From an uncultured Gammaproteobacteria bacterium (GTDB taxonomy: Bacteria > Patescibacteriota > Microgenomatia > Levybacterales > GWA1-39-11): a stretch of DNA of 64,000 bases. The DNA is taken from positions 1,056 through 65,055 of the forward strand of contig CAZYWG010000011.1 in the NCBI GenBank assembly GCA_964651815.1, in the 5' to 3' direction. Under the pieces are notes generated by a model. The model worked only from the letters and a program-made list of their open reading frames with translations. It was not told where the DNA came from and ran no database searches. A program made the translations under genes and the position numbers. Positions 52,027 through 53,070 of the stretch are shown piece by piece. Position 1 is the stretch's first letter; every line of letters begins with the position of its first letter.

Positions 52027-53070
52027 CTAAACCTGCCTTATTCTTTCTGCAATCTTATGAGTATTCCCATGTGTCAGAAGCCCTAGATATGAAGCCATCG
52101 ATTCTTGGGTGTAATTCAGTATTAATTTGCTGAACATCCTTCTTTTGGTTGATGTACGGATTATTCTATGATGAGGAAAATGTACCCAACCTAGAAAATC
52201 AACACCGGAGGAAAGTGTTTTGATGTATAACTTGTCAGGGTGAAGGGAAAGCTTAAGCATGCTTTCTAAAAATTCTGAAATCTTTGGGATTTGGGCTTCT
52301 AGATACTGTTTGTTTTCGCTTAAAATAACAAAATCATCAGCATAGCGGATGTAATATTTAATCTTGAGTTTGTGTTTTATAAATTGATCAAATTCGTTCA
52401 TGTAGATATTTATAAATAGTTGGCTCGTTAGATTGCCAAGAGGAAGACCAACTTTAGAATCATTGCTTGTAGAAAAACTATCAATATCTTCACTTAAAAG
52501 CCATATGATAGCTTCATCATCAATATATTTCCCTACTACCTTCTTAAGTATTGAATGGTCAATATTGGCAAAAAATTTCCTAATATCACCCTTAAGTATC
52601 CACGCCGTTCTTGTATCGTTGCAGGATATCTTTCTTCCATATTCTCTAAAACGATTTATTGCTTTGTGCATACCTTTATCTTTTCGACACGAGTAGGAAT
52701 AGGAAGTAAAAATTCGGTCAAAATATGGGTATAGGATTCGATAGATTGCGTGATGTAAAAGTCGATCACATACGGTTGCCTTATGGATATCTCTCGGTTT
52801 GGGATCACTTATTTTAAATGCGGAGTATGTCCCATGTTTATATGTTTTATCAACAAGTTTTTGGTGAAGCGCGAGAATATTATCTGTTAAATGCAAAGAG
52901 AATTCGGCAACATCACGCCTTTTCCTTTTACCTTGTAAGAATTCACGCCACGCAGTAAGTAAATTCTCAAAAGAAATGATACTATTGTAATTATGGTGAA
53001 GCCGTCTCTCTCTCTCTCTCTCTCTCTCTCTCTCTCTCTCTGAGCGCGCTTCGATCCTCAGCCGTGTCAA
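52027..53070 (-). CDS. Diversity-generating retroelement (DGR) reverse transcriptase.
   Basis: ...SFENLLTAWREFLQGKRKRRDVAEFSLHLTDNILALHQKLVDKTYKHGTYSAFKISDPKPRDIHKATVCDRLLHHAIYRIL... is the characteristic DGR-RT N-terminal pattern. RT motifs include YIRYADDFVIL (YADD). About 347 aa. Cognate TR/VR pair 350-900 bp away on the same strand. Confidence 0.85.
   Translation of the reverse strand: MTRLRIEARSERERERERERERRLHHNYNSIISFENLLTAWREFLQGKRKRRDVAEFSLHLTDNILALHQKLVDKTYKHGTYSAFKISDPKPRDIHKATVCDRLLHHAIYRILYPYFDRIFTSYSYSCRKDKGMHKAINRFREYGRKISCNDTRTAWILKGDIRKFFANIDHSILKKVVGKYIDDEAIIWLLSEDIDSFSTSNDSKVGLPLGNLTSQLFINIYMNEFDQFIKHKLKIKYYIRYADDFVILSENKQYLEAQIPKISEFLESMLKLSLHPDKLYIKTLSSGVDFLGWVHFPHHRIIRTSTKRRMFSKLILNYTQESMASYLGLLTHGNTHKIAERIRQV

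Follow-up and report, generated by a model that had tools for sequence, protein, structure and literature searches.

A dinucleotide repeat as a probable frame switch shared by the avd and reverse transcriptase genes of a Patescibacteria diversity-generating retroelement

What does a long and perfect dinucleotide repeat do inside the coding region of a gene whose product takes part in mutagenesis? The question is raised by a diversity-generating retroelement (DGR) in a stretch of 64,000 nucleotides from contig CAZYWG010000011.1 (assembly GCA_964651815.1, positions 1,056 to 65,055 of the forward strand), which was analysed as a whole and is called the window here. The element is a complete DGR of the Patescibacteria type with architecture B3, TR-(avd)-RT, where TR is the template repeat and RT the reverse transcriptase. 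Its repeat is located at the head-to-head overlap of the RT gene on the minus strand and the accessory gene avd on the plus strand (Table 1). A sequence-only reading of the window had assigned the repeat to the RT and regarded it as a plausible slipped-strand ON/OFF switch. The comparison with related loci presented here makes it likely that the tract is a hypermutable frame switch common to avd and RT, and gain or loss of repeat units probably switches both genes, and hence hypermutation, on or off.

The tract and the two frames that cross it

Tandem Repeats Finder reported the tract as the sole period-2 array of the 64-kb window, with 18.5 TC copies and 100% matches, which bears out the earlier remark that no other tract of this kind is visible there. 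A 12-nt TC pattern with one mismatch allowed was likewise found solely at the tract, where dinucleotide-preserving shuffles of the window gave an expectation of 0.11. The sequence-only reading had described a perfect repeat at 53005-53040; the perfection stands, and the extent does not, as the 36 nt of the minus strand in that interval read (GAG AGA)6 and the repeat continues for one further base, to 53041. The tract is read as (SL)n on the plus strand (avd) and as (ER)n/(RE)n on the minus strand (RT). In the 347 aa open reading frame (ORF) running on the minus strand from TTG 53070 to 52027 it does encode (ER)6 at residues 11-22 (MTRLRIEARSERERERERERERRLHH), as had been stated, but this frame is not the conserved one. 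The tract starts 12 nt past the avd ATG and 66 nt past the RT ATG, it is perfect, and its unit is not divisible by 3.

Read on the opposite strand, the avd ATG at 52993 is the conserved RT His codon CAT, and the RT ATG at 53107-53105 is the His codon of the Avd PHIP motif. Because each start is the exact antisense of the other gene's His codon, the avd and RT frames are codon-aligned across the repeat, and because of this alignment one and the same tract phase puts both genes in frame. In the proposed mechanism avd would be read from ATG 52993 through three codons, then through the tract as (SL)n and into a four-helix-bundle body from 53042. The RT would be read from ATG 53107-53105 through 22 codons antisense to the avd N-terminus, through the tract as (RE)n and into the RT body from 53004. 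Tract lengths divisible by 3 (33 nt, 39 nt and so on) would bring both genes in frame and the other two phases would truncate both, and slipped-strand mispairing, by adding or removing whole TC units, would shift a lineage from one phase to another. The claim that the tract affects the RT only did not hold, since avd on the plus strand runs through it as well.

The tract length was varied in silico on the window, and ORFs were taken from ATG 52993 (Avd), ATG 53107 and TTG 53070 (both RT). With the assembled 37 nt these were 16, 38 and 347 aa long, respectively. At 39 nt they were 131, 360 and 61 aa, and at 33 nt 129, 358 and 59 aa. All were closed at 35 nt (29, 72 and 25 aa) and at 41 nt (31, 74 and 27 aa). 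The assembled allele is one TC unit short of the in-frame length, with both conserved starts out of frame; it would be OFF for both genes as read from their conserved ATGs, and only the non-conserved TTG frame would keep the RT open. That length changes by other than multiples of 3 break the frames, as the earlier reading had reasoned, was seen both in these simulated alleles and in the natural ones described below.

Related loci, natural tract lengths and start codons

Related loci were collected by scanning JGI metagenomes and a set of genomes, one for each species, with the RT. The scans gave 160 loci, all with Patescibacteria DGR RTs to which that of the window was 59-76% identical, and 152 of them had enough upstream sequence. 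All loci from named genomes (RT identity 59-76%) belonged to Patescibacteria-type metagenome-assembled genomes, and no RT more than 68% identical to that of the window was found in the metagenome scan. In 149 of the 152 loci avd was antisense to and head to head with the RT gene. A simple sequence repeat (SSR) at most 130 nt upstream of the RT His codon was present in 140 of the 152: 72 poly-G tracts of 8-18 nt (poly-C on the avd strand), 65 (GA)n tracts of 8-43 nt and 3 (GT)n tracts. Nine of the 152 had no repeat at the junction. Comparable repeats elsewhere in the same loci numbered only 9 in 906 kb, and the 37 nt of the window make it the second longest (GA)n tract among the related loci. 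A repeat at this junction is the rule in a large environmental DGR clade, which is new with respect to the searchable literature. As the site is conserved and unit and length are not, the comparison points to mutability, rather than any particular sequence, as the property under selection.

Compound repeats were present upstream of the RT in two loci. In L029 (GA)11 runs straight into G8, and in L096 a G12 comes after (GA)n; both may be transitional forms that link the poly-G and (GA)n types.

Repeat length is polymorphic within populations of related loci. The most informative case was a locus from the Hainich aquifer, represented by eight contigs from wells H52 and H51 and replicate filters, with an RT 68% identical to that of the window and an Avd starting with MVKP. 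Five H52 contigs (L004, L166, L167, L169 and L171) had identical flanks over 1000/1000 nt on the RT side and 450/450 nt on the avd side (379/379 in the shorter L171), and a sixth, L168, had one flank mismatch. The H51 contig L165 differed at 4/587 and 1/369 positions, and L170, from a separate assembly, was slightly diverged like the H51 contig. In H52 the tracts measured 24, 28, 28, 32, 32 and 38 nt; the H51 contig had 30 nt and L170 had 22 nt. Full Avd was encoded by the 24- and 30-nt alleles only (135/137 aa). The RT was 366 aa in the 24-nt allele and open to the contig end (227 aa) in the 986-nt contig L165 with 30 nt, and in the 28-, 32- and 38-nt alleles both genes were truncated (Avd 17-36 aa, RT 36-49 aa). 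In L170, with 22 nt, Avd was truncated (15 aa) and the RT was kept at 365 aa via a 1-nt deletion upstream of the tract. This deletion, in an A run of avd (caaag to caag; L170:1199-1240), restores the RT from the conserved ATG; at 3x coverage it may be an error or a compensating frameshift.

A second population with identical flanks had tracts of 25 nt (five contigs), 27 and 21 nt. Among the closest relatives of the window the tract was the sole indel, with lengths of 37, ~20, 19, 17 and 15 nt, and locus pairs at 99.9% flank identity had G9 versus G11 and (GT) tracts of 19 versus 17 nt. Avd proteins clustered at 90% identity comprised alleles one SL or one P apart, together with many truncated forms. 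Pairs with 100% identical flanks across the genome and metagenome collections had equal tracts; they are probably the same assemblies and were not counted as stability. The slipped-strand proposal holds as far as a hypermutable site is concerned, with lengths differing between contigs of identical flanks in two populations of related loci. What we infer is that DGR mutagenesis in cells is ON or OFF according to the tract phase, that the switching is reversible and that the window locus is itself heterogeneous.

The avd start was placed by means of repeat-free loci and protein N-termini. That the avd ATG is conserved says little by itself, because this ATG is the antisense of a conserved RT His codon for which CAT is preferred. 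In the seven repeat-free relatives (L038, L047, L049, L050, L065, L088 and L125) the avd ATG was in frame and open, 7/7, against a chance of (1/3)^7. Avd N-termini in the databases, from many metagenomes, read M-x-[KR]-P-...(SL)2-6-...ASILxRIKEGYL, or have PPP(P) in place of the SL units; examples are P0002 (MAKPTLSLSLSERASIL), 87% identical to the Avd of the window, and P0112 (MVKPALSSLSLSLSLSLDSASIL). The closest relatives of the window all have ATGG(C/T)GAAGCC at the avd start. In the window the avd-body frame is open from 53000 to TAA 53384-53386, out of frame with ATG 52993 in the assembled allele, and contains no ATG, GTG or TTG before TTG 53222, which is residue 61 of 114. The conserved helix 1 of Avd, ASILxRIKEGY, lies between the tract and the first downstream TTG (residue 14, which is CTG in the window), and since these residues precede any downstream start, avd translation must begin upstream of the repeat. 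In loci of the (GA)n type with the tract in frame, an upstream in-frame RT start and an in-frame avd ATG occurred together in all but L045, which has a marginal tract of 8 nt.

In the repeat-free L038 the avd N-terminus is MTIRNSLSVTLEGATIL, and its linker resembles an (SL)n that has decayed; the allele may be locked ON. The RT and avd start codons of this locus form the palindrome CATATG.

For the RT, the earlier reading had implied TTG 53070 as start through its residue numbering and had proposed, alternatively, a true start downstream of the tract. The TTG proved not to be a conserved RT start: it lacks a preceding Shine-Dalgarno sequence and is the antisense of the avd codons K-E-G. The alternative applies to other loci than this one. 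In 43/127 non-redundant loci, namely 35 poly-G and 8 (GA)n loci, the RT had an ATG of its own (MKIQLxH..., MRPRH...) that lies downstream of the repeat and precedes the His codon by 12-21 nt; the remaining 84, including the window and its four closest relatives, had none, and the same was true of 50 of the 58 non-redundant (GA)n loci. No RT start codon of any kind was present downstream of the tract in the window.

The start used in loci of the window type is suggested by the codons TTA, CTA and TCA of avd, which would be stops in the antisense frame. From the repeat to the Avd His codon they made up 1/212 Leu and Ser codons, compared with 187/854 in the remaining avd (Fisher p = 6e-19), and the depletion goes no further than this His codon. 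Within the first 20 codons of avd, in loci without an RT ATG of their own, they numbered 1/203 ((TC)n) and 6/148 (poly-C), versus 24-28% later in avd. The 35 poly-G loci with their own RT ATG served as an internal control and were not depleted (46/151). Among (GA)n loci, open antisense frames did not tell those that have an RT ATG of their own from those that lack it, a comparison in which only 8 loci have one. Because the antisense stop avoidance is confined to loci without their own RT ATG, it argues that in the window type ATG 53107-53105 is probably the RT start and that the RT frame runs on across the tract. It also accounts for the preference for TTG at Avd residue 14, TTA being the antisense of TAA. 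The earlier statement that the tract lies inside the RT coding region is on this ground very probably right.

A candidate promoter precedes avd. Of 140 non-redundant loci, 93 have the motif TGNTANNNT at identical spacing, with its end 7 nt ahead of the avd ATG. The RT Ile codon that overlaps this -10-like motif is ATC in 98/129 loci (76%), versus 26% ATC at other places in the RT genes of these loci. This pattern hints that the avd mRNA is leaderless and has its promoter embedded in RT codons.

Phase statistics and rival readings

Several results do not sit easily with a simple switch. The avd ATG was in frame, +1 and +2 in 11, 17 and 19 non-redundant (TC)n loci, which is close to uniform (p = 0.33) and equally expected of a non-coding spacer. 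Poly-C loci (examples are L030, L054 and L021) were distributed 4/28/16 (p = 1e-4), so that the in-frame phase was rarer than chance and +1 dominated; in poly-C loci of type II, in which the RT has its own ATG, the counts were 0/13/8. This in-frame depletion is not predicted by a simple ON/OFF model. One might speculate that ribosomes slipping by +1 on CCC-C correct the dominant poly-C phase, or that polymerase slippage lies behind it. Slippage of RNA polymerase or ribosome on the repeat could restore some expression from out-of-frame alleles. In the +1 phase, moreover, the RT stays open in a TTG/GTG frame, the window being a case in point, and in some loci (P0001, P0179) a second ATG, antisense of the RT 'DIIS' codons, keeps avd open, although in the window TAA and TGA close the frame of this second ATG. 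Accordingly, the switch may be leaky or have three states. A simple sigma-70 -35/-10 scan found no promoter at the junction, and the -10-like motif is confounded with RT coding. The only other copy of the locus, located by exact look-up of the neighbouring 479-aa protein, was the 4.2 kb Logan contig L081 (SRR9179560), which ends within the tract (1-30) and is silent on its length, in keeping with the k=31 limit of its assembler. On the other hand, as the in-frame phase was found in only 11 (TC)n loci versus 17 and 19, most assembled consensus alleles are OFF, and this predominance of out-of-frame alleles is consistent with a switch that is usually OFF. It is also consistent with the description of Patescibacteria DGRs (clade 2) by Roux et al. 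2021 (PMC8144416) as having lower-than-average activity.

One rival idea is that the repeat buffers expression. Slippage of RNA polymerase, or frameshifting of the ribosome, on (UC)n/(GA)n or poly-C/G would restore the frame in some products, and tract length would set a low constitutive supply of Avd and RT rather than switch the two genes. In favour of this, the assembled alleles are mostly out of frame although the DGRs have been active in the past, and the dominant +1 phase of the poly-C loci (28/48) is the one correctable by a +1 slip on CCC-C proline codons, at which +1 frameshifting by tRNA-Pro is known. Transcriptional slippage is, however, documented mainly for long A/T runs and not for dinucleotide repeats, the (TC)n class has no phase preference, and natural populations mix in-frame and out-of-frame alleles, as DNA-level switching expects; we consider buffering unlikely. 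An error of assembly or sequencing in the tract or its length is the least credible of the explanations. Short-read assemblers and PCR stutter can misjudge repeat lengths, and the k=31 Logan contig does break in the tract. This contig nevertheless comes from an independent run and assembly of the same strain and includes 30 nt or more of the repeat, repeats occur at this place in ~140 independent assemblies that stem from many projects, and the differences of 4-14 nt between replicate assemblies exceed stutter.

The reading in which the RT starts at TTG 53070, in frame and with (ER)6 in its N-terminal part, so that only the RT is switched and avd is uninvolved or a pseudogene, draws on the fact that the 347-aa ORF is the only intact canonical ORF in the assembled phase, and that gene callers pick the equivalent TTG/GTG in relatives of the same phase (L167, 352 aa). 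It must nevertheless be judged quite improbable: the TTG without Shine-Dalgarno is explained as a by-product of the avd K-E-G codons, the stop avoidance follows the codon-aligned ATG frame and not the TTG frame and ends exactly at the ATG, and in L001 the TTG frame reaches a TAA before the repeat. Moreover, avd is a conserved gene that in ON alleles is read across the repeat, and the Bordetella model DGR cannot do without it. Still less can be said for a non-coding spacer, with both genes starting downstream at unrecognised or non-canonical codons and a repeat that tunes transcription in a short divergent control region, in the manner of promoter-spacer phase variation, or does nothing. The uniform phases of the (TC)n loci would fit such a spacer, as would the RTs that do start downstream of the repeat in 43/127 loci and the frequent TTG at Avd residue 14 (47/58 (TC)n loci). 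The window, however, lacks a canonical avd start from the tract to TTG 53222 as well as an RT start on the downstream side of the tract, residue 14 of Avd is preceded by conserved residues, and 7/7 repeat-free loci are in frame with the upstream ATG. The antisense stop avoidance, limited to loci without their own RT ATG, also explains the TTG at residue 14, and we regard the spacer as very improbable. Two further roles were rejected. A promoter-spacer switch of the hif type was discarded since the repeat is downstream of both conserved ATGs and the promoter scan gave no flanking -35/-10 pair. An action of the repeat in the DGR RNA, through cDNA priming or a purine-rich structure, was set aside in view of the occurrence of (GT)n at the site and of the ~380 nt between the repeat and the TR.

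A hypermutable frame switch common to both genes therefore remains the favoured reading. In its general form, which we find only slightly the better bet, most DGRs of the candidate phyla radiation (CPR) would carry a stochastic ON/OFF repeat switch, with mostly OFF cells keeping a fixed variable protein and a few ON cells diversifying it; in the poly-G type with a downstream RT start the repeat would gate avd only.

If this is true, a repeat ON/OFF switch would be a simple restraint on the DGRs of the largest environmental DGR clade. It would amount to heritable and reversible bet-hedging on whether to mutate, a contingency locus controlling a DGR. It would explain the lower apparent activity of the clade in population data, as well as the inconsistent avd and RT starts given by gene callers and the elements that look frameshifted and are not dead. 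The geometry itself is unusual, with genes on opposite strands reading the same repeat in codon-aligned frames. To our knowledge, DGRs are the most powerful targeted protein diversifiers, and how cells restrain them appears to be largely open; uncontrolled mutagenesis would keep destroying working variants.

Anatomy of the element and known systems

On the minus strand the order of the element is target gene (54571-53876), TR (53558-53429), the reversed avd (plus strand, 52993-53386) and the RT from 53107. The TR and the variable repeat (VR) form a 130-nt repeat, the one TR/VR pair in the whole window, with 86% identity and all 19 internal differences at TR adenines. The DGR has thus been active, each of the 19 TR-to-VR changes being at a TR adenine. 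The NCBIfam model DivGenRetAVD also matched the avd body (model 3-104 of 104, residues 5-108) with 65.6 bits, below its cut-off of 80 bits. The exact-protein look-up held no record of the DGR target protein, and Rfam revealed no known RNA in 52000-54700.

Table 1. Positions of the repeat, the start codons and the parts of the DGR in the window
Feature	Positions	Strand	Size or sequence	Basis
Perfect (TC)18.5 / (GA)18.5 SSR	53005..53041	none	37 nt	Tandem Repeats Finder, sequence
Conserved RT start ATG (probable start)	53105..53107	-	66 nt (22 codons) upstream of tract	Antisense stop avoidance
Predicted RT N-terminal extension peptide			MRSNINPNQISFFDTAEDR	
TTG, only canonical start in frame with RT body at 37 nt	53068..53070	-		ORF list, translation
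RT body including stop codon	52027..53004	-	RLHHNYNSIISFENLL...	RVT_1 PF00078, 75 bits
Conserved avd start ATG	52993..52995	+	MVKP (ATG GTG AAG CCG) before tract	Repeat-free relatives, protein N-termini
16-codon ORF in assembled phase	52993..53043	+	MVKP(SL)6, TGA at 53041-53043	Translation
Predicted Avd N-terminus when in frame			MVKPSLSL...ERASILSR	
avd body	53042..53386	+	114 codons + TAA	Pfam PF22296 bAvd, 58.7 bits, cut-off 40
Extended -10-like motif, ends 7 nt before avd ATG	52977..52985	+	TGATACTAT	Candidate promoter
TR	53429..53558	-		Repeat search, alignment
VR, 3' end of target gene	53880..54009	-		Alignment
DGR target gene, C-terminal VR	53876..54571	-	231 aa	ORF; no Pfam match

At the 3' end of the TR (53429-53443, minus strand) a terminator-like hairpin, TTTCGG-TGT-CCGAAA, is followed by CTGCTTTCTT; in the VR copy the last variable adenine has become C, which breaks the stem. 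Imperfect 8-nt tandem arrays, AAAGAATC x5.4 and then AAGAATTT x2.9, occur at 53804-53870 (plus strand), in the gap that separates the TR from the VR end of the target gene. Directly upstream of the target gene is an IS1595-family (ISXO2-like) transposase gene (54616-55569, minus strand; PF12762, 131 bits), and just downstream of the RT (50107-51546, minus strand) is a gene for a 479-aa protein with a right-handed beta-helix region, borderline in Pfam (25.8 versus a cut-off of 25.9 bits).

The layout and the adenine-specific TR/VR differences are those of the B3 DGRs of CPR/Patescibacteria (PMC5758913; clade 2, PMC8144416), and Wu et al. 2018 (PMC5758913) give TR-(avd)-RT for 90% of CPR DGRs. 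The parts of these two papers that are available do not mention a repeat at the avd/RT junction, an overlap of the genes or a switch. The searchable literature contained no paper linking DGR or Avd with phase variation, homopolymers or SSRs; the main CPR DGR paper (Paul et al. 2017) is outside it. What is new with respect to that literature is the DGR as the controlled system and a single repeat read on both strands by codon-aligned overlapping genes.

The DGR of Bordetella phage BPP-1 (avd-TR-brt) has the same two enzymes, Avd and RT, both of which are required for mutagenic retrohoming. Unlike in the window, all its genes are on one strand, without gene overlap and without a repeat, and we know of no stochastic genetic switch in that system. 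In Haemophilus influenzae the (TA)n between hifA and hifBCDE is, as here, a single dinucleotide repeat that is situated between divergent genes and controls both. The hif repeat lies in the -35/-10 spacer of overlapping promoters and acts on transcription, whereas that of the window is downstream of both start codons and would act on the reading frame.

The closest likeness in mechanism is to the contingency loci of Neisseria, Haemophilus and Campylobacter (opa CTCTT, lic1A CAAT, poly-G), in which a perfect non-triplet repeat also stands a few codons past the start, genomes that are otherwise identical vary in repeat number, a single phase leaves the frame intact and a low-complexity N-terminal peptide is tolerated. 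The present locus differs from them in that both strands read one repeat in two opposed, overlapping and codon-aligned genes, so that one phase serves both, in its Patescibacteria host, and in that a mutagenesis machine, not a surface structure or a methyltransferase, would be controlled. Second-order control of variability by a hypermutable repeat is known from the tandem repeats of mismatch-repair genes such as mutL and from the phase-variable Mod methyltransferases of phasevarions; these act genome-wide, whereas here mutagenesis is confined to one variable region. Judged from the sequences compared, the mechanism appears to be of the contingency-locus kind, a simple repeat in the 5' coding region with a reversible switching and a phenotype that we infer, placed at the head of the two genes of a DGR.

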